Origin: an uncultured Ignavibacteria bacterium
GTDB lineage: Bacteria; Zixibacteria; MSB-5A5; UM-FILTER-46-8
Assembly: GCA_964563085.1 (NCBI GenBank)
Contig: CAZLVS010000002.1
Span: 62-64,061, forward strand
Direction of reading: 5' to 3'
Length of the DNA: 64,000 nucleotides
Shown: in pieces, positions 29,115 through 51,132 of the stretch
Numbering within the stretch: position 1 is the first letter of the stretch
How the letters are laid out: each line of letters begins with the position of its first letter
Notes under the pieces: model-generated
Databases searched by the model: none
Told to the model about the DNA's origin: nothing
Seen by the model: the letters and a program-made list of their open reading frames with translations, nothing else
Made by a program: the position numbers and the translations under genes

Positions 29115-31550
29115 ATGATAAACCGCAATATTACATGGTTATTATGTTGTTTATTTCTTGTTACCTTAGTTATCCAGGCAAACGCTGATTTATCCGAGGA
29201 TGTCATCAATCGGGATTTTCCCCCCATTTATGTATCAATAGTCACGCATAACGAAGAACCCCCGCAGTATCCCGATTTCACGGTTAACGAACCGGCTTTT
29301 TGGATTTACCGGGAGGCGGTTGTAGAATTTGCCGATATGCTTTTCGATGAAGGCGCAGCGTATAACTATCAATCGGAATGGAACTTCCTGCTGGCGGCAA
29401 CCATGTATGATACCGGTACGCCCTCCACTAACGGCAAAAATATATTGCGTTATTTAAAGGAGGATTTGGGCTTCGAGATCGATCCGCATGCCCATGAAAC
29501 CCAATACAATTATGCTGATGTTGCCTGTCTGATTGAGGAGCTGGGAGTGCCGACTTCATCGACGGTCGGCGGTTTTATCGCCTTCCCACCGGAAGATTCC
29601 AAACTTGAATACCTATGGCAGCCTCTATTCGGGTGGAATTATCCCCAGTTCACCTGGCAGGCGGAAATATTGTGGGGCGGCGCAACATATATGCATCAAA
29701 ACGAGGAAATGCTCTGGGTATCCGGTGTCTGGAAACCGAAGGATGATGGACATTTTCTTGAACACGACGAGAATGCTCCGCTGCCGCATATAGGAGGTTA
29801 TGCCGGAGGTTGGGAGGGATTATATGATTTACTGCAAAAGCAGCAGGATGGAGAGTTGGAAGAGGGTAAGATATATACAAAGACGATATTCGCCCCGCAA
29901 TCGAGGATGCTAAATCCGGAATATATCGAGGGGTTCCGCGCGGAAGTGCAGAACCTGGAAACATATACGCAGGCGGGATTGATCAGATGGGTCGGTTTGG
30001 CTGAAGTTATAGACATCTGGATCAACGAATACAATTCCGAACCGAATATGCTTCCATATACAGACGCGGAGGAAGTGTGGGTATACAATCCCACCAGCGG
30101 AGTGGACTTATACTGCCATATCCACCGTTCCGGCGATTTCGACAGCAATCTAACCTATCCCGGCGTGGTACTTATACCCGGCGGCAGCGGGGAGGGAACA
30201 TCATTCGACGCCAACGGACAGGCGGATGCCTTTGCGGATGCAGGTTTTATCGTCATGCATTTCGATCCCGACGGGAGAGGGCTGTCAACTAATGGCGGCC
30301 AGTATACCGAAGAGGATTACAACGGTTTCATTCAGCAGGACGGGTTAAGAGAGGTATTTCAATATCTTGTGGATTTGCCGGAGACCGATGATGACAACTG
30401 CGGCATGTTTTCCAATTCTTACGGGATAACTATGGCGGCGGGGACATTAGCTCGATATCCAACCAATCCCCACGCTAAATTCTTGATAGATTTTGAAGGA
30501 CCCCACAATCGGACTGTTACTGCCCAGATCAACGGCGGACATGTTCCCCATGATACCTCCGATGCGGAATTCTGGTCGGAGCGGGAAGCTGATCAATTTA
30601 TGCCGTCGGCAACTTGCTATTATACCAGAATACAGACTGTTATCGATCATAATCCGAACATAACCGATAACCGTCATGCCATCGCTCTGATTAATGCGGC
30701 AACCGATACTATCTTCGGCGGCGATGGAGTCTGTCCCTGGACGATTGCCAATGACGACATTATCAACGATCCCAATCAAGTTTACACTATTCAGGGACCT
30801 CCGTCATGGCTGCCGGAACAAGCTGACCATATCCCCTACCGTGTGAATAGATTGGAGGATATGGCGAATATGCCGCCGAATTACGTTTCCATCGGGATGA
30901 CACCCGATGAGGAACCGATAGTTGTTCCTCCGGGAGGTTATTTTACTTTCACAGGTATCCTCGCCAATCAAACAGACCAACCCAAAAATGCGGATGTATG
31001 GGTGATGGTTGATGTCCCCGGTTATGGGCTGTACGGGCCTGTTCAGAGATTTAATAATGTACCGCTGCAGCCGGAACAGATTATCAGCGTTGCTGGGGTG
31101 AGACAGAATATCCCCGGATCGGTCCCGGCAGGTAGCTATAATTATCTGGCATACAGCGGAGAATACCCAGCCGCGATTTTTGATTCCGCATGGTTTGAAT
31201 TCACGGTTGCATCGGAAGGCGCCGATAGGAACGTTGACGGCTGGGTCTTGGATGGGTGGTTTTCCAATCCCGATGAGACGGTTCCGGCTTCAATTGAATT
31301 GTCGAAGAACTATCCGAATCCTTTCAACGTCTCAACGAGTATCACCTTCAGCTTGCCGCAAGAATGTCATGTCAGCCTCCAAGTATATAACTTGATGGGA
31401 CAGAAGGTCGCCACACCGGTCGATGGACTTTTTGAAGCCGGACAACATAACGTTTCATGGGATGCATCGAATTACTCCAGCGGAGCTTATTTTTATAAAT
31501 TGGAAGTCGGCGATAAAGTGATCACGAAGCGGATGACGCTGCTCAAGTAA
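29115..31550 (+). CDS. T9SS-secreted multi-domain protein: N-terminal unknown domain + alpha/beta-hydrolase + shared ~105-aa module + T9SS C-terminal sorting domain
   Basis: Signal peptide after Met at 29115 (RBS gaggag). Hydrolase segment VVLIPGGSGEGTSFDANGQADAFADAGFIVMHFDPDGRG…FSNSYG. Module VSIGMTPDEEPIVVPPGGYFTFTGILANQ…DVWVMVDVPGYGLYGP…YNYLAYSGEYP…FEFTV. CTD NYPNPFNVSTSITFSLPQECHVSLQVYNLMGQKVAT…SGAYFYKLEVGDKVITKRMTLLK. Confidence 0.7.
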   Translation: MINRNITWLLCCLFLVTLVIQANADLSEDVINRDFPPIYVSIVTHNEEPPQYPDFTVNEPAFWIYREAVVEFADMLFDEGAAYNYQSEWNFLLAATMYDTGTPSTNGKNILRYLKEDLGFEIDPHAHETQYNYADVACLIEELGVPTSSTVGGFIAFPPEDSKLEYLWQPLFGWNYPQFTWQAEILWGGATYMHQNEEMLWVSGVWKPKDDGHFLEHDENAPLPHIGGYAGGWEGLYDLLQKQQDGELEEGKIYTKTIFAPQSRMLNPEYIEGFRAEVQNLETYTQAGLIRWVGLAEVIDIWINEYNSEPNMLPYTDAEEVWVYNPTSGVDLYCHIHRSGDFDSNLTYPGVVLIPGGSGEGTSFDANGQADAFADAGFIVMHFDPDGRGLSTNGGQYTEEDYNGFIQQDGLREVFQYLVDLPETDDDNCGMFSNSYGITMAAGTLARYPTNPHAKFLIDFEGPHNRTVTAQINGGHVPHDTSDAEFWSEREADQFMPSATCYYTRIQTVIDHNPNITDNRHAIALINAATDTIFGGDGVCPWTIANDDIINDPNQVYTIQGPPSWLPEQADHIPYRVNRLEDMANMPPNYVSIGMTPDEEPIVVPPGGYFTFTGILANQTDQPKNADVWVMVDVPGYGLYGPVQRFNNVPLQPEQIISVAGVRQNIPGSVPAGSYNYLAYSGEYPAAIFDSAWFEFTVASEGADRNVDGWVLDGWFSNPDETVPASIELSKNYPNPFNVSTSITFSLPQECHVSLQVYNLMGQKVATPVDGLFEAGQHNVSWDASNYSSGAYFYKLEVGDKVITKRMTLLK

Positions 31551-31563
31551 TATAACACACCCC

Positions 31564-31594
31564 GTCTTCATCCCGCAAAATGCGGGATGAAGAC
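31564..31594 (+). terminator. 13-bp perfect hairpin (gtcttcatcccgc aaaat gcgggatgaagac) after T9SS cargo gene
   Basis: Seen directly. No T-tract, so intrinsic-terminator function is uncertain. Confidence 0.4.
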
Positions 31595-31803
31595 ACCCCT
31601 CTCCGGAGGGGGATGAAATGTAGCGGCGAGGGGGTATGTTTAACCCGCCATTGATTGATGACAAAGTAATCTTGCATATCAGAGATTCCGGACTTCAGTT
31701 CGGGGAGTTTCACGGTTCTTAATAACCGAGGACTTTGGTCCTCATAAGGTCATGTAGAGGAGTAGTATACAAGAAGGGTTAAAATCCGTCATTATTAAAA
31801 TAG

Positions 31804-31962
31804 CCTGTATTATTCACAAATTGAGTTATCGGCAGCGGAAGCCTTGCGCTTCCGGCGTCTTTTTGAAACCCTCAATTCCAGTCTGTATATGATCTACTTC
31901 TATTAAACTCCCGAAGGACAAACCTTCGGCTGCGGATTAATGCTGTTTGTGAAGTATCCGGG
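31804..31962 (+). repeat. ~155-bp intergenic repeat element, copy 7
   Basis: cctgtattattcacaaattgagttatcggcagcggaagccttgcgcttccggcgtctttttgaaaccctcaattccagtctgtatatgatctacttctattaaactcccgaaggacaaaccttcggctgcggattaatg…. Confidence 0.8.
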
Positions 31963-32079
31963 AGAGTAATACTCCCCATGTTAAAACGTGGGGACTCGCA
32001 GCACCTTTCAGCAGACTTGTTGGAATGGTCGGGGCATTAGCGGAGTACGATTAGTTTCATGCCTACTGATGGAAATCCT

Positions 32080-32877
32080 TTACCAGCTACTCGCGGTTCC
32101 CACGAAATGATTGGTGGGACCGTGTCCCTGCCCTAAGTCTGCGCTGTGCGCGATAGCTTCGGAAATGAAGCTCTTGGCTCTATTAATTGCCTCGAGTGGA
32201 GCATATCCTTTAGCCAATCCCGCTGCGATCGCCGATGAAAAGGTACAACCGGTGCCATGGGTATTTTTGGTTGAGAATAATTGTGATGACAGTTCATGGA
32301 ATTGCTTGCCATCGAAAACAATGTCCACAGCCTCGCGGGAATTATCCAGATGCCCGCCTTTAACCACCACGAATTTACATCCTATCTCCTTTAACTCGCG
32401 TGCCGCCTCTTTTGCGGTATCAATACTATCAACCTTTTTCCCGGTTAATGTCTCGGCTTCGAATCTATTGGGCGTTATCACGTCAGCGAGGGGCAACAAG
32501 TACTCCTTGATAGTACTGCGAGCTTCCTCCGAGAGTAGAGGATCGCCGCTTTTCGCCACCATCACCGGATCGACAACGAGATTATTTAGATTGTATCTCT
32601 TAACAGAGTCGGCAACAGCAATGGTGATTTCGGGATTCGAAAGCATCCCGACCTTCACCGCATCGGAACCGATATCATCCAGACAGCTTTTGATTTGTTC
32701 AACAACCATGTTAACGGGAATGTCGAACACTGCTTGTACGCCGACAGTGTTCTCAGCTACGATAGCAGTTATAGCCGACATCCCGAAGACGTGAAAGGCT
32801 GAAAATGTCTTTAGATCAGCCTGGATACCGGCTCCGCCGCTGCAATCGGAGCCGGCTATTGTCAATGCTCTTTTCAA
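32080..32877 (-). CDS. thiD: hydroxymethylpyrimidine/phosphomethylpyrimidine kinase ThiD
   Basis: MKRALTIAGSDCSGGAGIQADLKTFSA… PfkB/ThiD signature, C-terminal GTGCTFSSAIAAGLAKG. Confidence 0.85.
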   Translation of the reverse strand: MKRALTIAGSDCSGGAGIQADLKTFSAFHVFGMSAITAIVAENTVGVQAVFDIPVNMVVEQIKSCLDDIGSDAVKVGMLSNPEITIAVADSVKRYNLNNLVVDPVMVAKSGDPLLSEEARSTIKEYLLPLADVITPNRFEAETLTGKKVDSIDTAKEAARELKEIGCKFVVVKGGHLDNSREAVDIVFDGKQFHELSSQLFSTKNTHGTGCTFSSAIAAGLAKGYAPLEAINRAKSFISEAIAHSADLGQGHGPTNHFVGTASSW

Positions 32878-33533
32878 TTTGATCCCTCCGCATTTTCGAT
32901 TTCAGATTTAATCTCCTGGGAAGCCCTTTCGATATCATCGGAGGCTACAATCGCTGATATCACTGCCGCTCCGCAAGCTCCTGCTTTTATAACCTCCGAT
33001 ACGTTGTTATTGTTAATTCCTCCAATAGCAATAACCGGTATGCTGCACTGCGAGCAGGCTTTCCTCAGCAGCTTCAATCCCAATGGTTCTCCGGCATCCG
33101 ACTTGGTCGCTCTGGCTTCGAAAACCGGACCGAAGCCGATATAATCAGCGCCATCCTTTTCCGCCTGGATCGCCTGGGCGACTGTGATCGCGGACACTCC
33201 CAGTATCATTTCATCGCCGATAAGCTCCCGAGTTATCTTTGCGGGAATATCATCCTGTCCCACATGTACGCCATCGGCTCCGGAGGCGATGGCGATATCC
33301 ACACGGTCATTGACGATGAATGGCGCTCCGGTTCTGTGGGCTAACTCACGGATTTCACGCGCCGCCTCGAGAAGCTTCTTACCTGATGCATCTTTGTCGC
33401 GCAACTGGATAGCATCGGCGCCTCCTTTTAGCGCGACCTCCGCAATTCGTTGATGAGTGCGCCCGCGCGAAAGGACTTCATCGGTAATAACGTAAAGCTT
33501 CCATAAAGAAGGATTCGTAATCCTGGATTTCAT
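32874..33533 (-). CDS. thiE: thiamine-phosphate synthase ThiE
   Basis: LYVITDE…IQLRDKD…GADGVHVGQDD…GFGPVF…IAIGGI motifs. Start placed at MKSRITN (ATG 33533). The tool ORF extends to 33668 with no RBS support. Stop overlaps the thiD start. Confidence 0.8.
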   Translation of the reverse strand: MKSRITNPSLWKLYVITDEVLSRGRTHQRIAEVALKGGADAIQLRDKDASGKKLLEAAREIRELAHRTGAPFIVNDRVDIAIASGADGVHVGQDDIPAKITRELIGDEMILGVSAITVAQAIQAEKDGADYIGFGPVFEARATKSDAGEPLGLKLLRKACSQCSIPVIAIGGINNNNVSEVIKAGACGAAVISAIVASDDIERASQEIKSEIENAEGSN

Positions 33534-33543
33534 ATTATCCTCA

Positions 33544-34236
33544 TCATACAGGTATAATCGGGGGCCATTCTTCCTTAGTCCAGCCCATTTCAAAAAACAG
33601 CAATTCGAACCTGGCGCTGTATTGATATAGATAGAACCAGTGTTCTTTCTGTTCGGTGGAACTCTCACGAGCGAAACAGTTCATTTTATCTATGAGCCAC
33701 TGCACCAAATCATTCATCTCGTCGGATGAATAGGTTTCTATCCAATCCCTGTAATGCTTCTGATCCGGCATGCCCTTTGACCGAAGGTTTTCGGCAATCT
33801 CTACATAGCCTGATGCACACGGCAGCAAAACCGCCGTAATATCGCTCAAGGCTCCCTCATAGCAAGCGTAATTCAGGAATTTGGCGTAGGCGGTTGTTGT
33901 CAATCCCGGTTTGGTTCCTTCCAATTCCTCATTCGTGATTCCGTAATCGGCACAAACCCTCCGATGCAGCTCCATTTCCATTTTGAGGGTGGCGTTAAGT
34001 AAATCCGCAAACATAGTCATGTCGGCGAGGTTTCTCGCCTTCGCCGCGGCTAAGGCGAATACTCGGCTGAATTCAATCAAGTAAGCATAATCCTGCTTGA
34101 GGTAAAACTCAAACCGGTCTTTGGAAAGCGTGCCATCGCCTATCCCCCGAACGAAAGGATGCTTTATAATCTCCGCCCAAAGCGGATCAGATCGTTGACG
34201 CATTTCTTTTACAAACTCAGAATACTCCATAATCAT
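33544..34236 (-). CDS. tenA: TenA/thiaminase II family aminopyrimidine aminohydrolase
   Basis: HPFVRGIGDGTLSKDRFEFYLKQDYAYL… and C-terminal Cys/Tyr/Glu pattern of TenA_C. Confidence 0.75.
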   Translation of the reverse strand: MIMEYSEFVKEMRQRSDPLWAEIIKHPFVRGIGDGTLSKDRFEFYLKQDYAYLIEFSRVFALAAAKARNLADMTMFADLLNATLKMEMELHRRVCADYGITNEELEGTKPGLTTTAYAKFLNYACYEGALSDITAVLLPCASGYVEIAENLRSKGMPDQKHYRDWIETYSSDEMNDLVQWLIDKMNCFARESSTEQKEHWFYLYQYSARFELLFFEMGWTKEEWPPIIPV

Positions 34237-34247
34237 CTCCTTTGGTT

Positions 34248-35588: not shown

Positions 35589-35604
35589 GTCTAACAACTA
35601 ACAA

Positions 35605-37032
35605 CTACTTAATTACCGTCATCCGTTTGGTAATTGTATTCCCATCGACGGTAAGCCTGTACAAATAGATTCCCGACGCTTCCCGGGATGCATCCCACGA
35701 AACCGAGTGATTTCCTTGTGACATACTGCGATTCGTCAGCATCTTTACCGATTCACCGAGGAGATTGAATATCTCAAGCTGAACGCTTGCGGCTTCAGGT
35801 ATTGTGAAATCAATTTCGGTTGTCGCATTAAACGGATTGGGACGATTAGTTATGAGGATGAAATCCTCCGGTTTTGCATTTCCCGAATCCGTGAACCAAT
35901 CACTCAAATCCCAGCTTCGAGCCGCGTTTTCAATCTTTGAAGTCACCGTAAACGGGAAGGAAACCTGAGCTGTTGCATCGTCAGGATAATCACCGCAGAA
36001 GGCGATATAATCATAGTCCCCCGCCGGCGCGTATCCCGGCACCTGCTGAACAATGCCTGCTTGAGTCAACGTTTGATAAGCTCCGATATAGATTTCATTA
36101 AAACGGTTCAACGGTCCATACATTCCATAACCGGGCACATCAAGCATTATCCAAATATCCGTGCTTTGCGGTGTATAGGTATTATTAATAAGTACACCCG
36201 TATAAGTGAACGAACCGCCCGCCGGCACTATAATCGGGGGATTATCCGGTATCATGTCTATCGAAAGAACCTGCGAACTCCAGCCGGAAACCGAAGCCAT
36301 CATCCACCACCAGGCTTTTCCCTTTTGATAACAGTTGAAACATTGGGAATGGGCACAACCACAAGAGGGGCAATCGTGAGTTTCACACCAATCATAACAC
36401 CATCCGCAGGCATCGCTCTCATAAGGGTAGTAATTACCATCAGGATCGTAGCTTTCTATGTCCGCAAAATCGAATAAAACCTTTTCGTTGACAGCGCAGT
36501 AGTCGCGTATCTGATTATTCCGCTGGTATAGATTCCCATCGGGACCGGAACCATCGAGGTGACCCGTCATGTAAATAAAGATCACGTCGGGATATTGACC
36601 TTCGAGTTCGTTCATCTTATTAAGATAGATATCTATACCCTCCGGTGTGTTATCGGAAACGCCTCCGCACCAGGAAAACATAGCCATATTACATCCCGGA
36701 TTAGCATCCAGATATTGCCTGGTGTGGGCAACCCAGGATGTATCGCCGTTATGCCCCAGATCGTCACTCCGTTCGTAGAAGTATGGTGGCGTGTAGACAG
36801 GAATTTCATCTTCTAATAAATTAATCCCTGTCATTATCTGGCTTCCGTGGGATGTATGAACATAATAGATATGATAATCATTAGTAATGGAATTTATTAC
36901 ATCCTCCGGGATGAGCTCGAATTCACCGGTTGATAGGTGATCCGCAATAATAGCATCGGCAAACGCCGCATTTGCAGGAATAAAGGAAACAAAAACAATT
37001 AAAAATAGAACCAATAGGCTTCTATTTGTCAT
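35605..37032 (-). CDS. T9SS-secreted protein: N-terminal unknown domain with Cys-rich cluster + shared ~105-aa module + T9SS CTD
   Basis: Signal peptide MTNRSLLVLFLIVFVSFIPANAAFA. Cys cluster CGWCYDWCETHDCPSCGCAHSQCFNCY. Module LSIDMIPDNPPIIVPAGGSFTYTGVLINNTYTPQSTDIWIMLDVPGYGMYGP…YDYIAFCGDYPDDA…FPFTV. CTD …NRPNPFNATTEIDFTIPEAASVQLEIFNLLGESV…SGIYLYRLTVDGNTITKRMTVIK. Confidence 0.7.
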   Translation of the reverse strand: MTNRSLLVLFLIVFVSFIPANAAFADAIIADHLSTGEFELIPEDVINSITNDYHIYYVHTSHGSQIMTGINLLEDEIPVYTPPYFYERSDDLGHNGDTSWVAHTRQYLDANPGCNMAMFSWCGGVSDNTPEGIDIYLNKMNELEGQYPDVIFIYMTGHLDGSGPDGNLYQRNNQIRDYCAVNEKVLFDFADIESYDPDGNYYPYESDACGWCYDWCETHDCPSCGCAHSQCFNCYQKGKAWWWMMASVSGWSSQVLSIDMIPDNPPIIVPAGGSFTYTGVLINNTYTPQSTDIWIMLDVPGYGMYGPLNRFNEIYIGAYQTLTQAGIVQQVPGYAPAGDYDYIAFCGDYPDDATAQVSFPFTVTSKIENAARSWDLSDWFTDSGNAKPEDFILITNRPNPFNATTEIDFTIPEAASVQLEIFNLLGESVKMLTNRSMSQGNHSVSWDASREASGIYLYRLTVDGNTITKRMTVIK

Positions 37033-37251: not shown

Positions 37252-38394
<1,143 letters not shown>

Positions 38395-38428
38395 TCATTA
38401 TCCGTAAATCTAAGCAGTTATGGTTTAG

Positions 38429-38586
38429 CCTGGATTATTCGTAAATTTGGAAATCGGAAGCGGAAGCCTTGTGCTTCCGGGGTTTCTCTGTAATCTTCTA
38501 TTCCAATCTGTAAATGCTCTATTTTTTATAAATCCCCGAAGGAATAGCCTTCGGTTACCGAATATCAGACTTTATGAATTATATAG
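38429..38586 (+). repeat. ~155-bp intergenic repeat element, copy 8 (more diverged)
   Basis: cctggattattcgtaaat…cggaagccttgtgcttccgg…ccccgaaggaatagccttcggttaccg…tttatgaattatat. Confidence 0.7.
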
Positions 38587-39438: not shown

Positions 39439-40461
39439 ATGTTAAGGAAATTAATTACATTATTATTAGCAATAATCATGGTGATTTTTGTTATTGGAAT
39501 GGCTCAAGCCACGGTTTATTCCTGCCGTGCTTTTCTTGAATATGAACTTGACCACTCCGGTATTCACGTAGAGTTCGAAGGTAACTGGGGTCATTACATC
39601 TGCCGCGGACTGTATGAGCATACATACACAGTCGAAAACGGTTATTGGATCTTAGAGTTTCCGTCTTGTTGGTACGACGTGTGCCTTACACCACCGGACA
39701 CAGCAAAGTGGGAAACCCTTTGCTGGGAAAATTCATATTTCCCGCCAGGGACCTATGACTGTCTTGAAAACGGCAAATGGGATACATTATGGGCTAAATT
39801 ACCGAGATTCGATATTGTTATGCATCCATATGATCCGCCGGTTGTAGTTCCACAATGCGGAAGCTTCAGGTATACTGGCATACTCAAAAATAATTATGGT
39901 ATGCCCGGTACTGTAGATGTCTGGATCGAAATCGGCGGACTATATGAAGCTAGGAAATTTTTGAATATTCCCATTGAAGGAAATCAAGAGATAATAGTCG
40001 AAAATATACGTCAAAGAGTCCCATGCTGGGTTCCACCCGATGTATATAGTTATTGCGTGTATGTCGGTGATTATCCTGATGATGTTATCGATTCTTACTG
40101 CTTCAATTTTACAGTCACGGAAGCGTTTGCCGGAGGCGGCGGAGTAAATGAATGGCAAGTTGATGCTTGGTTTGATTACGAAGCCGTATCAAAATCTTCA
40201 ACAACAAGCGTTTTGAGCAATACTCCCAATCCCTTCAACGCCACGACATCAATTATGTTTAATCTCACCGAGGAAACTGAGGTTAAGCTGGAGGTCTATG
40301 ACCTGCTGGGACGGAGGGTAGCAACGTTGGCGGATGGCGCTTACAACGCCGGCGAACATTCGGTCACCTGGGACGCTTCGGACTATTCCAGCGGTGTTTA
40401 TTTCTACCGGCTGGAAGCGGGCGATGAGGTGTTTACTAAACGTATGACTTTGCTTAAGTAG
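39439..40461 (+). CDS. T9SS-secreted protein: Cys-containing N-domain + shared ~105-aa module + T9SS CTD
   Basis: Signal peptide MLRKLITLLLAIIMVIFVIGMAQA. Module DIVMHPYDPPVVVPQCGSFRYTGILKNN…VDVWIEIGGLYE…YSYCVYVGDYPDDV…FNFTV. CTD …NTPNPFNATTSIMFNLTEETEVKLEVYDLLGRRVATL…SGVYFYRLEAGDEVFTKRMTLLK. Confidence 0.7.
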   Translation: MLRKLITLLLAIIMVIFVIGMAQATVYSCRAFLEYELDHSGIHVEFEGNWGHYICRGLYEHTYTVENGYWILEFPSCWYDVCLTPPDTAKWETLCWENSYFPPGTYDCLENGKWDTLWAKLPRFDIVMHPYDPPVVVPQCGSFRYTGILKNNYGMPGTVDVWIEIGGLYEARKFLNIPIEGNQEIIVENIRQRVPCWVPPDVYSYCVYVGDYPDDVIDSYCFNFTVTEAFAGGGGVNEWQVDAWFDYEAVSKSSTTSVLSNTPNPFNATTSIMFNLTEETEVKLEVYDLLGRRVATLADGAYNAGEHSVTWDASDYSSGVYFYRLEAGDEVFTKRMTLLK

Positions 40462-40540
40462 GGGAAAATATTATCCGGGTGGAACATTTCCGCCCGGGTA
40501 ATTGTAAGATGAATAGGAGGTATAACTAAAGGAGGATGCT

Positions 40541-41206
40541 ATGTATGTACGTTCGGTTTTTCTAACAGTGTTCCTGTGTGTGGGAATAATTTCATTAGCG
40601 GGGGCAAATCCGAGACCGGATACAACAGGAGGGTTTATTTTGGGTTACGCCTTTTTGGAGGATGGAGGGGAGTCCCCGGTTAGAGTGGATTTTGTATACC
40701 AATCAAATTCCTTACCTCATCAAGATTCTACAATCTTTACGATCACCGATTACTCCGGGTATTTCGAATTCTATTTCACCTGGACTGAAGCGGCCACTGA
40801 TTTCCTGTTGAAGTATTCACGTCGCGGATATCTGAGTGAAACAAGGTATTCCGATTATGTACCGGTGTGGTATAACGGGGAGTACTGGCGAATGGATTTT
40901 TCAACGGTAACTCTGGAATGTGATGATCGAATGGTGATAGGTGATGATCGAATACGGATAGGAAATGATCCCAATCCATTCAATCCCGCTACGTCTATCG
41001 AATTCGTTTTACCGGCGCAAGCTAATGTAAAGCTCGAGATATATGACATCATGGGGCGGAAAGTGGCTGCACTGGCGGACGGCGCTTACGATGCCGGCAG
41101 GCATACAGTGAGTTGGGATGCTTCGGATCAATCCAGCGGGGTTTATTTCTACCGGCTGGAAGCGGGTGATAAGGTCGTTACGAAACGGATGACGCTGTTG
41201 AAGTAA
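40541..41206 (+). CDS. small T9SS-secreted protein (carboxypeptidase-regulatory-like core?) with 5' and 3' ends near-identical to the next gene
   Basis: RBS aaaggagga. Signal MYVRSVFLTVFLCVGIISLAGANP. CTD …DPNPFNPATSIEFVLPAQANVKLEIYDIMGRKVAALADGAYDAGRHTVSWDASDQSSGVYFYRLEAGDKVVTKRMTLLK. Confidence 0.65.
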   Translation: MYVRSVFLTVFLCVGIISLAGANPRPDTTGGFILGYAFLEDGGESPVRVDFVYQSNSLPHQDSTIFTITDYSGYFEFYFTWTEAATDFLLKYSRRGYLSETRYSDYVPVWYNGEYWRMDFSTVTLECDDRMVIGDDRIRIGNDPNPFNPATSIEFVLPAQANVKLEIYDIMGRKVAALADGAYDAGRHTVSWDASDQSSGVYFYRLEAGDKVVTKRMTLLK

Positions 41207-41217
41207 AGGAGTAACGG

Positions 41218-41249: not shown

Positions 41250-41288
41250 TGCTTAATCAGATAAGAGGTACTACAAAAGGAGGATGCT

Positions 41289-42242
41289 ATGTATGTACGT
41301 TCGGTTTTTCTAACAGTGTTCCTGTGTGTAGGAATAGTTTCATTAGCGGGGGCAAATCCGCTTCCCGGTAATCCAGTGGAGTACAATGTGGATATTTTAT
41401 ATCCAACGGACGACGCTCGAATTAAAATGAGTAAGCCGGATACGAATTACGGCTCGAATTCAAATCTTTGGATAAGGAATAGATATGGGTCGCCATACCA
41501 TCCGGACCACTGGGAAAGCGACGCACTGCTGAAATTCGACTTATCCAATCTTCCCCCCGATGCAAACATAAACTCGGCGACTTTGAATATGTACTATTAT
41601 TACTGGAAAGATAACAATCCCACCGGGAGGGAGTTAACGGCGTATAAGATCATCGAAGACTGGGATGAAATGACGGTTACCTTCAATAACCAGCCATCTA
41701 CTGCGCCGGAACTGTCAGCGAGTTCGACCGTGCCTGCCGATTACGGTTGGATGAGCTGGGATGTTTCCGAAGACGTCCAGGATTATGTCAATGGACAGAC
41801 TGAGAATTATGGGTGGAAAATCATGGATGAGGAGTACTGGGGGCAGTACAATATCCCCAGGATATATTTCTACACGAAAGAGTGGGAGACTGCCGAGTTC
41901 ATTCCTTTTCTCGAAATCAGCTACTCAGGGGAGGAGCCAACGTCTATATCCATTGAGATGGCTCCCCATGATAATCCCGCTGCAGTCCAGCTTCACGCTA
42001 ATTATCCCAATCCGTTCAATCCCGCTACGTCTATCGAATTCGTTTTACCGGCGCAAGCTAATGTAAAGCTCGAGATATATGACATCATGGGGCGGAAAGT
42101 GGCTGCACTGGCGGACGGCGCTTACGATGCCGGCAGGCATACAGTGAGTTGGGATGCTTCGGATCAATCCAGCGGGGTTTATTTCTACCGGCTGGAAGCG
42201 GGTGATAAGGTCGTTACGAAACGGATGACGCTGTTGAAGTAA
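41289..42242 (+). CDS. T9SS-secreted DNRLRE-domain protein
   Basis: Signal MYVRSVFLTVFLCVGIVSLAGANP. Core …DDARIKMSKPDTNYGSNSNLWIRN…ALLKFDLSNLPPDANINSATLNMYYYY…TVTFNNQPS… matches the DNRLRE-domain pattern (sDxxyGsxxxLxV.…LLkFDLSsLP.ga.ItsAtLxLy…wxEstVTwNNqP). CTD identical to the previous gene over ~235 nt. Confidence 0.65.
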   Translation: MYVRSVFLTVFLCVGIVSLAGANPLPGNPVEYNVDILYPTDDARIKMSKPDTNYGSNSNLWIRNRYGSPYHPDHWESDALLKFDLSNLPPDANINSATLNMYYYYWKDNNPTGRELTAYKIIEDWDEMTVTFNNQPSTAPELSASSTVPADYGWMSWDVSEDVQDYVNGQTENYGWKIMDEEYWGQYNIPRIYFYTKEWETAEFIPFLEISYSGEEPTSISIEMAPHDNPAAVQLHANYPNPFNPATSIEFVLPAQANVKLEIYDIMGRKVAALADGAYDAGRHTVSWDASDQSSGVYFYRLEAGDKVVTKRMTLLK

Positions 42243-42388: not shown

Positions 42389-44662
42389 TTATTTAAGCAG
42401 CGTCATCCGCTTGGTGATTACATTGTCGCCAGCGCTTAGCTTATAGAAATAAACTCCGCTGGAGAAGCTGGCAGCATCCCAGGTTACAGTATGCTGTCCG
42501 GCAACCTTATTGCCGTTCACCAGTGTAGCGACTCTCTGTCCCATCAAGTTGTACACTTCCAAACTTACTTCCCCGGCTTCCGGCAAGCTAAAGCTGATAT
42601 TGGTGGAAGCATTGAACGGATTAGGATAGTTGGTCTGCAATCCATACTCGGTAGGAATAATTTCGCTTCCGAAGAACTCGCCTTCGATCGACCATTCGGC
42701 GGCGCCGTCAGCGATCCTGGCTCCTGCCACCGTGAACGGGAAAGAGGCGCTGTCGCAGACCTCATCGGGGCGATCGCCGCAATATGCCATATAGGTGTAT
42801 GTACCCAAGGGCGCAAATCCCGGCACATTCTGCCACGTATGCGCAGTCATCGACTCGCCCGGGTCTAACGGGATATTATTGAACGCAAACTGCTGGAAGA
42901 AATCACCCAGGTAGATCACTCCGCCCCAGACGTCCGTGGTAATCGGGTCATCGGTAGGATTACCGATGTAGCCGGTTAAACCGAAGCGGCCGCCCGGTTC
43001 AACTATAACGGGGTCATCGTCGGGAGTCATATCAACATCGCAGCAGGGTCCGCATTCCAGACCGCAATAGCCGTACCAGGTTCCGCCGGGACCGTCGGTT
43101 CCGGTAAAGAGTTTTTCACAGGTTACCGACAGAGTCCATCCCCAGCTGCTCGACCAACCGTTAGGAATGTTGAAAGTCTCAACATAAGTGCCGTCAAACT
43201 CATAGACATGAACGTCACCGCCGTCTTCCCATGTGAACAGGTTACAGCCGTTGGTGGCGATGCAGAATTCGAATCCCCAACCGTTGGTGGTAAATCCATA
43301 CATGGTATCCACCAGCTCGCAGGTTTCGAAATCAATTACCCAGACTGTGCCTCCGCTATGCTCGTACATTAAATTAGCAGCGGGATCGTAACATACTTTA
43401 GCCTGATAATCATGGAATACTCCGCTGCAAACAAGGTTGTATGTGCCGGCTTCCGGATCTATCTGATAGAGGTCAGTTCCATAAATCTTCACGTAGAATT
43501 GACCGTCATTCGGGTTGAAGAAGATAGCCCTCATGTCCAGCGTCAAGCTGACCTGACCCAGACTATTGCCTTCCAGATCGAATTTCTCCACAGCGCCCAG
43601 ACTGCTGATGCCGCCATTGACGGAGTACATATACTCATCGTTACACGCTATGGACATCAAGGTGACGTCGAGGCTGTTTGTAAAGGTCATGCATTCTTCC
43701 GGAGTATAATCGAGTATATCGCTTACCTGCGATTCATTAGCCGGTGAGAGCGCATAACTCGGGGATGCCGCAGTATTCACCATAGCGGCTTCCCATCCAC
43801 CTTCAATCGCCCAGTTCTCGGCGCCGTTTCTAAAGGAACCCGCGGTTACCGTGAACTCAAACATAGCGGAATCGCAAGCCTCGGGTTTCTCCCCGGAAAA
43901 GGCGATATAGGTATAGGTACCGGAAGGGGCAAATACCGGTACGCTCTGATTAAGATGAGCGGATAATTCCTCTCCGGGATCAAGCGGTATGTTGCCGAAA
44001 TTCCAGAGCTGGAAAAAATCACCCAGGTAGATAACTCCCACCCATACATCTGTAACGATCGGATCGGGATTGGGATTGGCGATATAACCGGTCAATCCGA
44101 AAGTACCGCCGGGCGGAACCATCACGGGATCATCATCGGGAACCATATCCACATCGCTGCAGAGTGTTTCCTCATATTCGAAGTCATCGATGGTATAGAA
44201 ATTTCCGGAATTATGCATCAACACATAGTCTATGCCATCGGCATTAATTTCCAGAAAGTCGTTCTGTCCGTAGTTATCTGGTCCCGATATCGATGCTAAC
44301 AGATTGTCATCGGAATCATATCCTTCCAGGTAAAACATAGAACCGGTTCCCGCGGTATACCAAACGCCTACATGGTTGGTCGGATCTTCAAAGTCGACCC
44401 TGATAGTGTTATCCGAATCGGTAAAAAGCACCTGGTTTCCCGAATGCGGCGGGTAGCCGGTATTGTTATATCCATAGACAACAGATTCAAGGATTGTCGC
44501 ATCGGGACCGAAAAACAGTCCTTCATAAAAGTCGCCCAGGTTTTGATCGCCGCCGAAATACCAATAGGTTTCGGGTACGTCCTCAAGATCGAGAACGGTC
44601 AACGCGTTTACTGTTCCAAAGGCAAACAGAACAATACAGATAGTTGTTAAAACACTTTTCAT
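42389..44662 (-). CDS. large T9SS-secreted protein with two copies of the shared ~105-aa module, a central beta-propeller-like region and T9SS CTD
   Basis: Signal MKSVLTTICIVLFAFGTVNA. Module copies VDMVPDDDPVMVPPGGTFGLTGYIANP…DVWVGVIYLGDF…YTYIAFSGEKPE…FEFTV and VDMTPDDDPVIVEPGGRFGLTGYIGNP…DVWGGVIYLGDF…YTYMAYCGDRPD…FPFTV. CTD …NYPNPFNASTNISFSLPEAGEVSLEVYNLMGQRVATL…SGVYFYKLSAGDNVITKRMTLLK. Confidence 0.7.
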   Translation of the reverse strand: MKSVLTTICIVLFAFGTVNALTVLDLEDVPETYWYFGGDQNLGDFYEGLFFGPDATILESVVYGYNNTGYPPHSGNQVLFTDSDNTIRVDFEDPTNHVGVWYTAGTGSMFYLEGYDSDDNLLASISGPDNYGQNDFLEINADGIDYVLMHNSGNFYTIDDFEYEETLCSDVDMVPDDDPVMVPPGGTFGLTGYIANPNPDPIVTDVWVGVIYLGDFFQLWNFGNIPLDPGEELSAHLNQSVPVFAPSGTYTYIAFSGEKPEACDSAMFEFTVTAGSFRNGAENWAIEGGWEAAMVNTAASPSYALSPANESQVSDILDYTPEECMTFTNSLDVTLMSIACNDEYMYSVNGGISSLGAVEKFDLEGNSLGQVSLTLDMRAIFFNPNDGQFYVKIYGTDLYQIDPEAGTYNLVCSGVFHDYQAKVCYDPAANLMYEHSGGTVWVIDFETCELVDTMYGFTTNGWGFEFCIATNGCNLFTWEDGGDVHVYEFDGTYVETFNIPNGWSSSWGWTLSVTCEKLFTGTDGPGGTWYGYCGLECGPCCDVDMTPDDDPVIVEPGGRFGLTGYIGNPTDDPITTDVWGGVIYLGDFFQQFAFNNIPLDPGESMTAHTWQNVPGFAPLGTYTYMAYCGDRPDEVCDSASFPFTVAGARIADGAAEWSIEGEFFGSEIIPTEYGLQTNYPNPFNASTNISFSLPEAGEVSLEVYNLMGQRVATLVNGNKVAGQHTVTWDAASFSSGVYFYKLSAGDNVITKRMTLLK

Positions 44663-45002
44663 AATTACTCCTGATTGAATAAATGTTTGGATTAAGAAAT
44701 CGATCCAACAACGGAAATACGTTATAACTCCTCCTTTCGATTATCAAAATTACAGCAGATTACTCTCGAAGTTACTTTTAGCGCGGAAAATACCATTCTA
44801 TATTTCACGAGCTATTGATATCACTTTTGAAAGAACACAACGCAAGCGTTGATCTGAAGACCTATTGGAAATATATTATAAAAATTAGCCCTTTATTCAT
44901 AAAAGTCAAGCGATATTTATAATAGCCGGGTATGGTAATCGTTATTTTAATAATAGATGGGGAATTAGAAACGATGCTCAGACTACCTGATTACAGGATA
45001 TT

Positions 45003-46350: not shown

Positions 46351-46626
46351 CTTACCTCCTGAGATGAGCTGGAAGGAACTGTTTTTAGGGGTAATCTTAC
46401 TGCAAAATCGCAAATTATACAATATTTTATATTTTATAAAACTGATACTGTTCCCTATCATCTTCGCCAAATAATTTTTCTCCGGTGGTGCGTCAAAACT
46501 TCAAAAAGTAAACCGATTACTATAATGTAAATTGTTAGCCCATTTTAATGCGAAATATTCCAATAGCGCGATATTTATAACATTATCACAGGCTTAATAA
46601 ATCAAGAACAGGGGGAGGAGCGAAAC

Positions 46627-47400
46627 ATGGTTTGTAAATCTATTCTCGGGATCGCATTGGTACTATCGATATTCTCGATTAATCTCTCCGCCGAGCCGGT
46701 GGAGGTAAGTATGTATCCTCACGATTGGCCTCTGGAAGTTCCGATAGGGGATGTCTTTATTTATGACGGATATGTTTACAATAATTCAGGCGATCCCCTC
46801 GATTCAGTCGATGTGTGGACCATGGCGATTCGACGCAGCGACGACGAAATATTCGGGCCATTCAAGCAGCTCGAAAATCAGTATATTCCCAGACGTTCCA
46901 TACTCTTGGTGCGGCTGGTTCACCAATTGGTCCCAGCCAGCGAGCAAACGCACGTTGGGGTATATGACTATGTCGCCTATTGCGGCAACTACTCCGATGA
47001 AGTCGATTTGTGGGATGTTTGGGATTCGTACTCATTCGAAGTATCAGTGACTCATGCCGAAGATCAACATCAAAATCGCCAATGCTGGGAATGGAACAAT
47101 TATAGCTGGGAACATGGATATATCGTGGAACTGCAACCGGAGTTTCAGGGACTCTCAAACTATCCCAATCCCTTTAATGCTAAAACTACCATATCATTCG
47201 ATTTATTAGGTGATTCCCGGGTGAACCTCAGCGTTTACAATATCGCGGGACAGAAAATCGCCGAGCTAATTGATGGGACATTAAATTCCGGTACCCATAA
47301 CGTCATTTTTGATGCTGAAAACCTGACCAGCGGCGTCTATTTCTATAAACTTAGCACGGAATATGATCTTACAACCAAACGGATGATTTTGCTCCGATAA
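46627..47400 (+). CDS. minimal T9SS cargo: signal peptide + shared ~105-aa module (divergent) + T9SS CTD
   Basis: Module VSMYPHDWPLEVPIGDVFIYDGYVYNNSGDPLDSVDVWTMAI…YDYVAYCGNYSDEV…FEVSV. CTD …NYPNPFNAKTTISFDLLGDSRVNLSVYNIAGQKIAEL…SGVYFYKLSTEYDLTTKRMILLR. Confidence 0.65.
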   Translation: MVCKSILGIALVLSIFSINLSAEPVEVSMYPHDWPLEVPIGDVFIYDGYVYNNSGDPLDSVDVWTMAIRRSDDEIFGPFKQLENQYIPRRSILLVRLVHQLVPASEQTHVGVYDYVAYCGNYSDEVDLWDVWDSYSFEVSVTHAEDQHQNRQCWEWNNYSWEHGYIVELQPEFQGLSNYPNPFNAKTTISFDLLGDSRVNLSVYNIAGQKIAELIDGTLNSGTHNVIFDAENLTSGVYFYKLSTEYDLTTKRMILLR

Positions 47401-47410
47401 AAGGCGAAAT

Positions 47411-47446
47411 GGAGATTGCCGACCTGTGCGATAATCGGCAATCTCC
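47411..47446 (+). terminator. 12-bp perfect hairpin (ggagattgccga…tcggcaatctcc) after cargo gene
   Basis: Seen directly. Followed by A-rich sequence rather than a T-run. Confidence 0.4.
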
Positions 47447-47518
47447 ATTGAGCAAAAAACGAACAAATTATCGATTGGGGTAATAATCACCAACTCGGAT
47501 AAGCTGCGCTTCCAAGAA

Positions 47519-47830
47519 TTACGCACAGATTGGAGGACAGGGCCAGGACCTATTTCCAAGAATCTGCCCGCCGCCATCCATATCACGACCCCCGCTATCC
47601 ACACCGACTATGACCAGTTCCGGTACGCCGTTAGCTTGCAGACCATAATAAATCCTTACGCCAACACAATCCCCCTGCTCGAGGATCTCATCAAAAATGC
47701 GTCGTTCGAAATATCCTCCCCTTCTCCCTTCCAATTTCGCTTGACCGCTTATCGAATCGACATATCTCTGTTTCAATTCAGCGGCTTCCGCAGCGGTTAT
47801 TTTGTGGTCACGTTTCCCATCATAAGGCAT
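47519..47830 (-). CDS. hypothetical small protein (103 aa)
   Basis: Strong RBS (ggagg 7 nt upstream of ATG on minus strand). No recognisable domain; Gly-rich C-terminus ending …CPPICA. Confidence 0.35.
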   Translation of the reverse strand: MPYDGKRDHKITAAEAAELKQRYVDSISGQAKLEGRRGGYFERRIFDEILEQGDCVGVRIYYGLQANGVPELVIVGVDSGGRDMDGGGQILGNRSWPCPPICA

Positions 47831-48440
47831 GATTAACCTCCTTCACTTGAGTTGAAATCCCGAGGTTCCATGCTTGGAGTGACTTAAGATTCCATCCTTT
47901 GCCTCAGAGACAAGATAGACTATCAAATACAGTATTCATATCTGTATAAACCAACCGCTTCTAAATCCACCGCTTTTAGTTCGTGTGATTAGTAAGTGAA
48001 TAGATAATTAACGTTGTTTCAATATACGATGAAAGGTCGCTTTATAGCAAACACCATTTTTATTCCGTAACTCAAAATACGATAGAAACTAAGGACACTA
48101 AATATTTCTTGATGCGAAAATAATTACAAAAAATCGATTTTTTAGTTGATTTTAGACTTTGCATGTAGTATATTCCAATTGTGGTAGTATAAGGTAGTTG
48201 TATTAGGTAGGATACATACCCCACAAGAACATAAACATATTTATTCCCGAATCCGTTATCTTTGGAAATTCGGTAATTTTTGCTTATCGAACCGATGTTC
48301 TATAAGCAGATATTGTTCTTCCTTAAAGGGAATTTACCAAGAGGCGTTCTTTTTTTGGATTATAGTGATAATGGTTGTCATTATTAACAACAGAATTTGA
48401 GAAAAGAAACGAGTAAACCAATAACAAAAGGAGGAAACAA

Positions 48441-49286
48441 ATGGACAAACTGAAATCACAATTAATCGGAGTGATTTTAACTGTTCTCCCTATCTTGATC
48501 TTAGTTCCGCATGCAGCAGTGGCAAACGTGAATCTTTCCCCGCCGCAGCCGGATAATGATTACCCGTTGGAAGTGATTATTGAACGTGAAGATAGTCTAT
48601 TAGTCCGTGGTGTAGAGCAGTATATAGCTGATATCCGCATAAATAACACCACCGATGATTACCTTCAGTTCACGTTTCGCACCGAGGTTTATAGCGAAGT
48701 CACCGGCGCTACGCTGGGACCATATGTCGGTCCTTACGTGAGTGGCATACCTTCCGGCTGGAGCCTTTGCGGTCACGTGGAGCATCCTGTCGCAGACTGC
48801 TCCTACATAGGATTTTACCAGTATAGACTCATCGCCTATGTGGAAGAAGACACTCTGGGTTATGGCGAATCTCGCGTTTTCATTACAAACAGCGAAGCCA
48901 ATAACCATCTTCCTGACTGCAAAACCGTGTTCTTTCCCGGGATGTGGGAGTTTTACCTGGTGGATCCCGAAGGTAGGTATCACGGTTTAGATCATTGGAG
49001 CGAAATGGGTAATGGAGAGAACACTTCAACTATCCATCTATTTGCATCGCCGAATCCTTTTAACGCTACAACCAACATCACTTTCGAACTGGCGCAGAAG
49101 TCGGATGTAAAGCTGGAAATCTATAATATCCTGGGCAGGAAAGTTACCACGCTTGCAGAAGGCGTTTATAATGCGGGAACGTACAATATAAACTGGGATG
49201 CATCAGAACAACCGTCAGGCGTATATTTTTATCGCCTGAGTACGCCCAACGAGGTTAAAACCCAGAGAACAACTTTACTGAAATAG
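48441..49286 (+). CDS. T9SS-secreted protein with unknown N-domain + T9SS CTD (no shared module)
   Basis: Signal/anchor MDKLKSQLIGVILTVLPILILVPHAAVA. CTD …ASPNPFNATTNITFELAQKSDVKLEIYNILGRKVTTL…SGVYFYRLSTPNEVKTQRTTLLK. Confidence 0.65.
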   Translation: MDKLKSQLIGVILTVLPILILVPHAAVANVNLSPPQPDNDYPLEVIIEREDSLLVRGVEQYIADIRINNTTDDYLQFTFRTEVYSEVTGATLGPYVGPYVSGIPSGWSLCGHVEHPVADCSYIGFYQYRLIAYVEEDTLGYGESRVFITNSEANNHLPDCKTVFFPGMWEFYLVDPEGRYHGLDHWSEMGNGENTSTIHLFASPNPFNATTNITFELAQKSDVKLEIYNILGRKVTTLAEGVYNAGTYNINWDASEQPSGVYFYRLSTPNEVKTQRTTLLK

Positions 49287-49306
49287 GTTCGTTTAGCGGC
49301 TTTTTC

Positions 49307-49338
49307 ATCGGGTCAGGATTACCTGACCCGATTTTTTA
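49307..49338 (+). terminator. rho-independent terminator (atcgggtcagg atta cctgacccgat + TTTTTT)
   Basis: 11-bp stem, 4-nt loop, T6 run immediately after the stop of the 48441..49286 gene. Confidence 0.7.
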
Positions 49339-49476
49339 TGGAGTATGCGTACCCCCCCCCGGCACACCCATCTTAAGCTTTCTTCGCCAGCAAATTATAC
49401 CAGCGCCCGAGCGACTTGACAATCATAGCTTTGAATACTATATTAATGAAGTAAATCACTGCCGGAGGGGATAAAA

Positions 49477-51123
49477 ATGATATTTAATTACAGATTGCTT
49501 GGCTATCATCGCATCACTCTTGTGGTTTCGCTTACAGTTATTTTGACCATATTTATTTCATCCGATTCTACATCAAGGGGATTTTCACACGAAAGTGATT
49601 TCTGTAATAACTGGGAAGTATACAAAAGAGATCAGATAAAGAAATATGGGAGATTGTACGATCCATGCTATAATGGAGACTGTGATATCCCCAGAAATCG
49701 TAATGAATCAATACCGGAACCCGATGACCCATATTTGTATATTCGCCTGTATTTCAATATCTTCTGTGAAGATGACGGCAGCAACTGCGGCACAACCGAG
49801 TCAATACTCGACCTGCAGATAAGGGAACTCAATAGCGCATTCTCTCCCTCAAGAATCCAGTTTGTTTATGATCATACCTTCATAAACTCAACGGAGTATA
49901 GATATAATCCAGATGTGGAACAGATGAAAAGTATTTATGCCCGGGCTCCCGAATATCAGCTTAATGTATACATTACTGAGGGCGCCGGTTCTTTTGGAAC
50001 ATATCCCTGGGACGACGTAAGATTACCGCTTTCCGATCAGGGCGGTATAGTTATACGTCACGATCGTATTTATCCGGCTCCATATTACGATAATACACTG
50101 GCACATGAAATCGGTCACTGTCTTGGATTATGGCATACATTCCACGGTGTATTTGAAGTACCGGAGTGCGGAGACTGTTATGAAATGGCAAATGGGGAAG
50201 ATGCCGATGTTACCGGAGATCTCTGTTCGGATACGCCGCCGACTCCACGAAACTACGATTGCCGAGATCCAGGCGGTGTCGATCCCTGCTGCGATACTCC
50301 ATGGGGGGAAACGTCTCCTCAAAATTATATGAGCTACAGCGCTCTGGGAGGAACTCCCTGCTGGACCGAGTTTACGCCGCAGCAATGGGGACGGATGCAT
50401 TGCTGGATTGATGCCGTTCTTTCCGGCTGGATTCAATCCGCCGGCTCACAATTGTCTATTGCAATGATCCCGGATGAAAATCCGATTGAAGTTATGCCGG
50501 GCGAGCAGTTCGGGCTTACAGGAATTTTGACAAACAACGGAGACAGCAGCGAAACAGCGGATGTCTGGATAATGCTGATTGCGCCGGAAATAGGGGAACA
50601 TGGTCCCCTACATACTTTCCATGACATCTCCCTACAACCGGGGCAAACAATCAATGCGCACCTTAATCAGCAGGTGCCGATAAACGCCCCATTAGGCATA
50701 TATGATTACATTGCAAACGCAGGAGATTTTCCCGATACAATTTACGATGCTGATACATTTCAATTCACAGTATTTCAGAATTCCGAACAAGGAGATTTCA
50801 GCGATCATAATCGGAGGTGGGTTCTGAGGGGAGGTTTCGACCGGAGTGTATCAAACCTAAAGAGCTTACAAAATGTCAGAAACTATCCTAATCCATTTAA
50901 TTCTTTTACCGAGATATCATTCCAGCTTATTGATGATTCCTATATCGAAATAACTGTTTTTGATATCCTGGGAAGACGAGTTGCAGCGCTTGCCAAAGGT
51001 AACTATAACGCTGGTGCGCACAATATCCGTTGGGATGCGTCAAACCAGCCGTCAGGTATATATTTCTATCGACTGAGTACACCCAATGAGGCTGAAACCA
51101 ATAGAATCACATTAATTAGATAA
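49477..51123 (+). CDS. T9SS-secreted M43-family (pappalysin/ulilysin-like) zinc metalloprotease + shared ~105-aa module + T9SS CTD
   Basis: Extended zinc motif HEIGHCLGLWHTFHG (HExxHxxGxxH, as in ulilysin HEIGHWLGLYHTF). Cys-rich catalytic domain. Module LSIAMIPDENPIEVMPGEQFGLTGILTNN…DVWIMLIAPEIGEHGP…YDYIANAGDFPDTI…FQFTV. CTD …NYPNPFNSFTEISFQLIDDSYIEITVFDILGRRVAAL…SGIYFYRLSTPNEAETNRITLIR. Confidence 0.7.
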   Translation: MIFNYRLLGYHRITLVVSLTVILTIFISSDSTSRGFSHESDFCNNWEVYKRDQIKKYGRLYDPCYNGDCDIPRNRNESIPEPDDPYLYIRLYFNIFCEDDGSNCGTTESILDLQIRELNSAFSPSRIQFVYDHTFINSTEYRYNPDVEQMKSIYARAPEYQLNVYITEGAGSFGTYPWDDVRLPLSDQGGIVIRHDRIYPAPYYDNTLAHEIGHCLGLWHTFHGVFEVPECGDCYEMANGEDADVTGDLCSDTPPTPRNYDCRDPGGVDPCCDTPWGETSPQNYMSYSALGGTPCWTEFTPQQWGRMHCWIDAVLSGWIQSAGSQLSIAMIPDENPIEVMPGEQFGLTGILTNNGDSSETADVWIMLIAPEIGEHGPLHTFHDISLQPGQTINAHLNQQVPINAPLGIYDYIANAGDFPDTIYDADTFQFTVFQNSEQGDFSDHNRRWVLRGGFDRSVSNLKSLQNVRNYPNPFNSFTEISFQLIDDSYIEITVFDILGRRVAALAKGNYNAGAHNIRWDASNQPSGIYFYRLSTPNEAETNRITLIR

Positions 51124-51132
51124 AAACCTTAG

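Follow-up and report, generated by a model that had tools for sequence, protein, structure and literature searches.

Proteins secreted by a type IX secretion system (T9SS) may carry an immunoglobulin-like (Ig-like) domain between the catalytic head and the C-terminal sorting domain (CTD), and the described examples closest to the case discussed here are the immunoglobulin superfamily (IgSF) domains of the gingipains RgpB and Kgp and of PPAD. The IgSF-CTD tandem of RgpB has been solved, and its two domains are joined by a flexible linker and adopt no fixed orientation relative to one another (PMC4804311). The gingipain IgSF has been proposed to serve as a spacer or insulator, and it has further been proposed that features of both Ig-like domains of RgpB, together with the length of the linker, affect CTD processing and the attachment of anionic lipopolysaccharide (A-LPS) (PMC4804311). 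Here we describe a module of about 110 residues that occupies the same architectural slot in proteins encoded on a 64,000-nucleotide stretch of DNA from an uncultured bacterium of the Zixibacteria (contig CAZLVS010000002.1, positions 62 to 64,061 of the forward strand; hereafter the window).

Like the IgSF domains of RgpB, Kgp and PPAD, the module is an Ig-like sandwich placed between a head and a CTD with a flexible linker. The gingipain IgSF, however, is a barrel-like domain of about 85 residues for which no tryptophan tail is described, and the linker of the module is the longer of the two (26-40 residues) and is partly conserved. No sequence relationship between the module and the RgpB, Kgp or PPAD domains is detectable, nor is any specific structural similarity. 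In secreted proteins of the Fibrobacteres-Chlorobi-Bacteroidetes (FCB) group, PKD, Big, He_PIG and other generic Ig-like domains are likewise found between heads and CTDs; these have Pfam models and variable positions, whereas the module is without a model and its position hardly varies. A further point of comparison is RbmA (PF22021; PDB 4be5/4kkp; Gene3D 2.60.40.3880), which scaffolds the biofilm of Vibrio cholerae and is a gammaproteobacterial protein of two fibronectin type III (FnIII) domains without a head or a T9SS CTD. The module differs from it in having a tryptophan-rich tail, a site ahead of the CTD and fusions to enzymes, and the sequence matches between the two are sub-threshold. 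RbmA is a matrix protein and directly binds Vibrio polysaccharide (PMC5605196). Overall, the module represents a sequence family not described before, whose fold and architectural slot are both familiar, and we give an even chance to the reading that it is a generic pedestal or spacer ahead of the CTD, which would make it the last folded domain of mature type A T9SS cargo.

A module at a fixed distance from the sorting domain

A six-frame hmmsearch of the window with a profile derived from the copies themselves returned eight matches with E values of 4e-43 to 2e-51, and the next-best match appeared only at E>2. The eight copies are spread over seven proteins and share 31-63% pairwise identity. 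This agrees with an earlier sequence-only reading of the window, which had counted the same eight copies in seven secreted proteins and had placed them to within a few tens of bases; 165 instances drawn from many genomes bear out the consensus it proposed (M.PD..P..V.PGG.F..TG.L.NN...DVW...Q.VP..AP.G.YDY..GDYP..D..F.FTV). Each of the seven proteins begins with a hydrophobic, signal-like N-terminus with plausible cleavage sites, as read directly from the sequence, and the six that are complete end in a type A CTD recognized by both PF18962 (35.9-45.8 bits, cutoff 27) and TIGR04183 (41.5-52.9 bits, cutoff 23). The seventh is cut by the end of the window, and its fragment is identical to the first 409 residues of the database protein P0011 (524 residues), which then continues into a tail, WVLSGWE, and a CTD identified by a local hidden Markov model (HMM). 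The CTD of this protein lies beyond the window end.

It had been claimed that the CTD follows the module directly in every case. This does not stand, as a linker with a tryptophan motif always lies between the two and one copy (43841-44161) is internal to its protein. The linker is itself highly regular. A CTD is carried by 143 of the 150 best family members (local HMM), and the distance from the end of the module to the start of the CTD is 29-43 residues in 132 of 140 (median 32). Of 129 linkers, 127 have a Trp 6-7 residues past the last strand, with L, G, W and F following at +2, +4, +5 and +6, giving the tail consensus G-G-A-D-E-W-x-L-x-G-W-F-D-D, after which comes an acidic, proline-containing stretch; in most members the CTD starts 21-22 residues after the tail Trp. 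Members from Calditrichaeota have a variant tail, W-D-x-x-C/F-x-G-E-x-F-P-G-E.

The tail is also present after most internal copies that do not abut another copy, as in the first copy of the 757-residue protein of the window and in P0005, P0012 and P0096, with P0082 as a partial exception in which a Trp follows one of two internal copies. It is found, too, after the terminal copies of P0006 and P0008, which have no CTD. Because it occurs at internal copies and at termini that lack a CTD, the tail is best regarded as part of the module and not of the CTD. That the motif is a piece of the CTD fold is unlikely for the same reason, and also because the CTD modelled with AlphaFold2 is complete without it. 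In the AlphaFold2 model of the module, linker and CTD together, calculated for the protein of gene 2 below, module and CTD form two separate sandwiches, the CTD being complete, with seven strands; the predicted local distance difference test score (pLDDT) of the tail is about 70 and residues 131-149 fall below 50, which in the model indicates a flexible connector between the two. The fixed spacing and the tail are new details, and they would warrant a family model.

P0006 and P0008 are adjacent giant paralogues of 2219 and 2246 residues on a locus from the JGI metagenome 3300017527 (L017, positions 1-11660). DUF333, NosD/beta-helix repeats and a C1 peptidase are common to the two, and P0006 further contains He_PIG and LamG domains.

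Fold and relationship to named families

The prediction that the module is a beta-sandwich was borne out by AlphaFold2, which, given the eight-copy alignment and the gene 2 protein as the sequence modelled, produced an eight-stranded all-beta domain with a mean pLDDT of 93 and agreement among five models. It is an FnIII-type sandwich superposable on RbmA, and it has the two sheets and seven to eight strands of the Ig-like / E-set fold. The best structural relative of the model is RbmA of V. cholerae (score 13.0, 20% identity), followed by Spo0M (12.3), the Ig-like domain of AlkC (11.4), Ig-like domains of dextranase and GH2 enzymes (~10.2-11.4), a CARDB domain (3idu, 10.4) and macroglobulin (MG) domains (~9.0-10.1). 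RbmA was again ranked top by Foldseek, with TM scores of 0.69-0.74. As modelled, then, the fold is an ordinary one.

Over the 165 instances, N28, D37, W39, Q74, Y85, Y87 and D100 are near-invariant. If the FnIII strand order is applied to the module, N28, D37, D93 and D100 would lie on either side of the BC and FG loops, at the pole nearest the head, and the Q74-x-V-P and A-P-x-G-x-Y motifs would lie at the opposite pole, beside the tail and facing the CTD.

None of the models in Pfam-A (2025) and NCBIfam (2026) extends over the module. When the proteins of the window were scanned with Pfam at E<=1, nothing fell on it, PF22021 and CARDB included, and the same held for 86 full-length members of the family scanned at E<=0.01. 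An identity with CARDB (PF07705; PDB 3idu/2kl6), which the sequence pattern had suggested, was rejected on the Pfam scans; 40 isolated modules gave no CARDB match even at E<=10, and identity to the module is 12-15%. The sole Pfam family matched by more than one member is the RbmA-like FnIII family PF22021, which was hit by two of the 40 isolated modules with a best E of 0.0015, and no module sequence reached its gathering score. When a 40-sequence module profile was run against all PDB sequences, RbmA came first at E 0.037, with strands B to F aligned. A comparison by hhalign with the second FnIII domain of RbmA gave a probability of 69% (P 4.5e-5) over 78 columns, the RbmA alignment being shallow and composed of fragments. 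RbmA-like FnIII is therefore the probable nearest described family, four partly independent lines agreeing on it and none of them being confident, and the module is taken here to be an unnamed family, probably of the same superfamily. The initial reading, which could assign it to no named domain family, accordingly holds for CARDB and for all Pfam-A and NCBIfam models at significance, and has to be qualified by a probable distant kinship with PF22021, for which the evidence is consistent and sub-threshold, so that a confident match to a known family was approached and not reached.

Family size, heads and taxonomic range

The module at first appeared to be rare. A word-indexed search returned three matches with the eight-copy profile and two with the 40-sequence profile, and an exhaustive hmmsearch of 1.84 billion cluster representatives revealed this rarity to be an artefact of sensitivity, as it retrieved 2,738 representatives at E<=1e-3, of which 1,298 reached E<=1e-10 and 138 reached E<=1e-30. 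Species-representative genomes, scanned with a pattern as seed, yielded 16 loci. The best relatives lie in five distinct Zixibacteria metagenome-assembled genomes (MAGs); three loci belong to one Calditrichaeota MAG, and the module was also found in a Rubricoccaceae MAG, in Candidatus Tariuqbacter arcticus and in an unclassified MAG. The scan was seeded with a three-sequence alignment that favours members with the words SIDMIPD/NPPVIVPAG, and this taxonomic range is therefore a lower bound. Since the relatives span several phyla, the suggestion that the module is specific to one lineage must be abandoned. The order head, module, tail, CTD recurs in Calditrichaeota, in Tariuqbacter and in the unclassified MAG. 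Arrays of module-CTD genes recur in related loci as well, and at one of them (L011) six modules occur among eight CTD genes within 16 kb. We found nothing in the literature that deals with Zixibacteria and T9SS together.

The heads to which the module is fused are diverse. Among the 86 full-length members there are peptidases of several kinds (S8 subtilases, M14, C1, M28 and M43), PETase-like esterases, FG-GAP proteins, several beta-propellers, beta-helices, Omp28, MAM, cupredoxins and BNR sialidase-like proteins, and in a few members PKD, Big or He_PIG domains lie further upstream. Within the window, too, BLASTP detected no similarity between one head and another at E<=1e-3, in agreement with the proposal that they are unrelated. 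Because the heads are functionally heterogeneous, a role that is generic to cargo is favoured over one that is specific to a substrate, and the diversity argues against the substrate-specific binding that the initial reading had put forward alongside possible carrier and adhesion roles.

What the module may do

The pedestal reading is drawn by analogy to the IgSF domain ahead of the gingipain CTD, and it finds support in the fixed position of the module, the tail, the two-domain model, the mixture of heads and the recurrence of the same domain order across phyla. Under this reading, cargo carrying the module would be exported by Sec, and the T9SS translocon would then recognize the CTD. Removal of the CTD would take place inside the disordered stretch of ~12-20 residues that runs from the tryptophan tail to the CTD, such that the module would stay on the mature protein as a pedestal proximal to the cell. 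During export it would insulate the head from the CTD, and afterwards it would keep the head off the outer membrane.

Several observations weigh against such a passive role. The closest structural relative of the module, RbmA, is a polysaccharide-binding matrix protein. The near-invariance of the polar residues N28, D37, Q74 and D100 and of the aromatic motifs over 165 instances is unexpected for a passive spacer, and these conserved polar and aromatic positions hint at a metal or ligand site. Four CTD open reading frames (ORFs) of the window have no module (40541-41206, 41289-42242, 48441-49286 and 17179-17430), so it is not needed by every cargo. P0006 and P0008 lack a CTD and each terminate in a pair of modules in direct tandem, with a KEW..W tail, and the module therefore also works outside the CTD context. 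Finally, the divergence of module and CTD is uncorrelated among the window paralogues (r=0.05 for pairwise identities), so there is no sign that the two are constrained as a unit, and the idea that they are inherited together as a cassette was rejected. The CTDs appear to be homogenized separately, as in two neighbouring genes whose CTD DNA is 99% identical.

The main alternative, possible if somewhat doubtful, is that the module is an RbmA-like domain that binds glycan or matrix, its target being the cell's own surface polysaccharide, an exopolysaccharide or some other common polymer, so as to tether a set of secreted enzymes to the envelope or biofilm matrix independently of, or in addition to, anchoring through the CTD. 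The two PF22021 matches among 40 modules, the hhalign result and the direct binding of Vibrio polysaccharide by RbmA (PMC5605196) all speak for it, as do the seven near-invariant residues and the existence of tandem copies and of copies without a CTD. Yet every one of the homology signals lies below accepted thresholds, comparable fold similarity is common to more than 100 unrelated Ig-like domains, and a binding module has no need of a fixed site some 30 residues ahead of a CTD. The more classical version of a binding role, in which the module is a carbohydrate-binding module (CBM) that directs its enzyme to an insoluble substrate, strikes us as very unlikely: although several CBMs, and Ig-like domains from glycoside hydrolases, have a comparable sandwich, most of the heads are not glycoside hydrolases but peptidases, esterases or, without enzymatic function, propellers or FG-GAP domains, one module protein of the window has no head at all, and the module has no sequence match to any CBM family.

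In a further reading, module and tail together would be a functional extension of the sorting signal, read by the translocon, the PorV shuttle or a PorU-type sortase of these non-Bacteroidota lineages and required for export to be efficient, for cleavage of the CTD or for covalent anchoring. The spacing to the CTD is very tight, with W-x-L-x-G-W-F 21-22 residues ahead of it in most members, and for RgpB it has been suggested that motifs in both adjacent Ig-like domains and the length of the linker influence processing (PMC4804311). We nonetheless think this quite improbable, given that four CTD ORFs of the window do without the module, that the tail accompanies most internal copies and the CTD-less termini of P0006 and P0008, that the tail differs in Calditrichaeota, and that the modelled CTD is complete, with seven strands, without the tail. 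In more general terms, it seems unlikely that the sandwich and its W-x-L-x-G-W-F tail play an active part in the handling of T9SS cargo in non-Bacteroidota FCB lineages (Zixibacteria, Calditrichota and relatives), be it as a second determinant for recognition or anchoring, read by PorU/PorV-type machinery, or as an RbmA-like tether of the secretome. As to the machinery itself, none of SprA/Sov, PorV, PorU or GldKLMN was seen among the window genes scanned, the window being the extent of that coverage.

Whichever role applies, at least about 2,700 protein clusters carry the module, and their public names refer to the sorting tail only ('T9SS type A sorting domain-containing protein'). If the sandwich and the tryptophan tail were combined in one family model, this would improve the parsing of domains in the secretomes of uncultured FCB-group phyla and would mark where catalytic heads end, and those who study T9SS would gain a conserved and easily mutated element beside the cleavage region. 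If the module were to bind surface glycans as RbmA does, it would account for extracellular hydrolases staying attached to the cell in these sediment bacteria, and proteases and esterases tethered to the cell's own surface polysaccharide would amount to an organized enzyme coat. At present, the module belongs to a familiar type of Ig-like accessory domain and marks a gap in annotation, not a new kind of biology; it neither surprises a T9SS specialist nor opens a long-standing question.

The seven genes of the window

Gene 1 (29115..31550, + strand) encodes 811 residues from the ATG at 29115; the mechanically called ORF begins at a GTG at 29061 and has 829. Its signal peptide is followed by a large head, the module (30882-31217), the tail WVLDGWF (31242-31262) and the CTD (31308-31547), and the product is identical to the database protein P0013. 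The identities first proposed for the heads fared unevenly. The alpha/beta-hydrolase proposed for gene 1 finds weak Pfam matches only (E 0.011-0.077). Gene 2 (35605..37032, - strand; 475 residues) has a signal peptide, a Cys-rich head that matched no family in the Pfam scan, the module (35935-36270), the tail WDLSDWF (35893-35913) and the CTD (35608-35847). The M43 and cutinase-like heads are both supported by Pfam. The former belongs to gene 6 (49477..51123, + strand; 548 residues), whose signal peptide precedes a Peptidase_M43 head (E 2.2e-6), the module (50449-50781), a degenerate tail WVLRGGF (50818-50838) and the CTD (50881-51120). The latter belongs to gene 7 (62773..64000, + strand), which is cut by the window end and consists of a signal peptide, a PETase/cutinase-like alpha/beta-hydrolase head (PETase, E 1.1e-16) and a module that is likewise cut (63688-63996).

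Gene 3 (39439..40461, + strand; 340 residues) has a signal peptide, a short Cys-rich head, the module (39805-40125), the tail WQVDAWF (40153-40173) and the CTD (40219-40458). Gene 4 (42389..44662, - strand; 757 residues) contains two copies, an internal one (43841-44161) with the tail WAIEGGW (43793-43813) and one proximal to the CTD (42719-43045) with the tail WSIEGEF (42674-42694); its CTD occupies 42392-42631. The 70% DNA identity between the copies indicates an intragenic duplication. Neither the ~265 residues between them nor the ~165 before the first has a family match. Gene 5 (46627..47400, + strand) encodes the protein of 257 residues that, as had been noted, has no head; the module (46696-47058, with two short insertions) comes directly after the signal peptide, a tail WEWNNYSW starts at 47086 and the CTD lies at 47158-47397. 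The product is 86% identical to P0002, which NCBI annotates as candidate division Zixibacteria.

Genomic setting

Instead of forming an operon, the module genes are dispersed over both strands between housekeeping genes, among them genes for thiamine synthesis, tgt, fpg, a CDP-alcohol phosphatidyltransferase, a SpoIIE-type phosphatase and an adenylate-cyclase/TPR regulator. Ten CTDs lie inside the window and one past its end, and seven of the 11 CTD proteins have the module.

Two of the four CTD genes without a module are adjacent and closely related at both ends. The CTD DNA of 41289-42242 is 99% identical to that of 40541-41206 over 243 nucleotides (40964-41206 versus 42000-42242), their 5' ends with the signal peptide are 84% identical (40513-40643 versus 41261-41391), and their middles are unrelated, one of them being a CBM96 domain. 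Such a pattern suggests that the two ends have recently been duplicated or have undergone gene conversion. In ORF 41289-42242, positions 41946-41990 encode 'ISIEMAPHDNP', which resembles the first strand of the module fused onto the CTD, with an HMM E of 5 that is not significant. P0134 (427 residues), which is 39% identical to the product of this ORF, has a complete module and a CTD, and this relative suggests that the module was lost from ORF 41289-42242 by deletion.

The ORF at 48441-49286 (+ strand) encodes 281 residues with a signal peptide and a CTD and is not related to the module; its ~170 N-terminal residues have no Pfam or NCBIfam match. It had been considered as a ninth copy on the strength of an alignment at 18% identity, and the candidate was dropped, there being no HMM match and an hhalign probability of 1.5%. 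The orphan ORF at 17179-17430 (- strand), of 83 residues, is a CTD alone (MNYNYPNPFN...RMILLK), with neither signal peptide nor head, and probably the remnant of a gene. On the - strand at 52310-55634 there are four consecutive membrane-protein genes, the last of which encodes a 409-residue DUF6754 protein (E 2e-111); a link between this run and the module genes is not obvious.

A dispersed intergenic repeat, which is not confined to the module genes and matches no Rfam family at the gathering threshold, has a 25-nucleotide core that occurs seven times in the window against zero expected by chance. Core sites lie at 3965-3989 (- strand), 12534-12558, 22573-22597 and 26191-26215, and longer copies at 31801-31926, 38426-38551 and 51130-51255. 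The three longer copies extend over at least 126 nucleotides, are 77-82% identical and share two conserved hairpins (GGAAGCcttgcGCTTCC and CCCGAAGGacaaGCCTTCGG).

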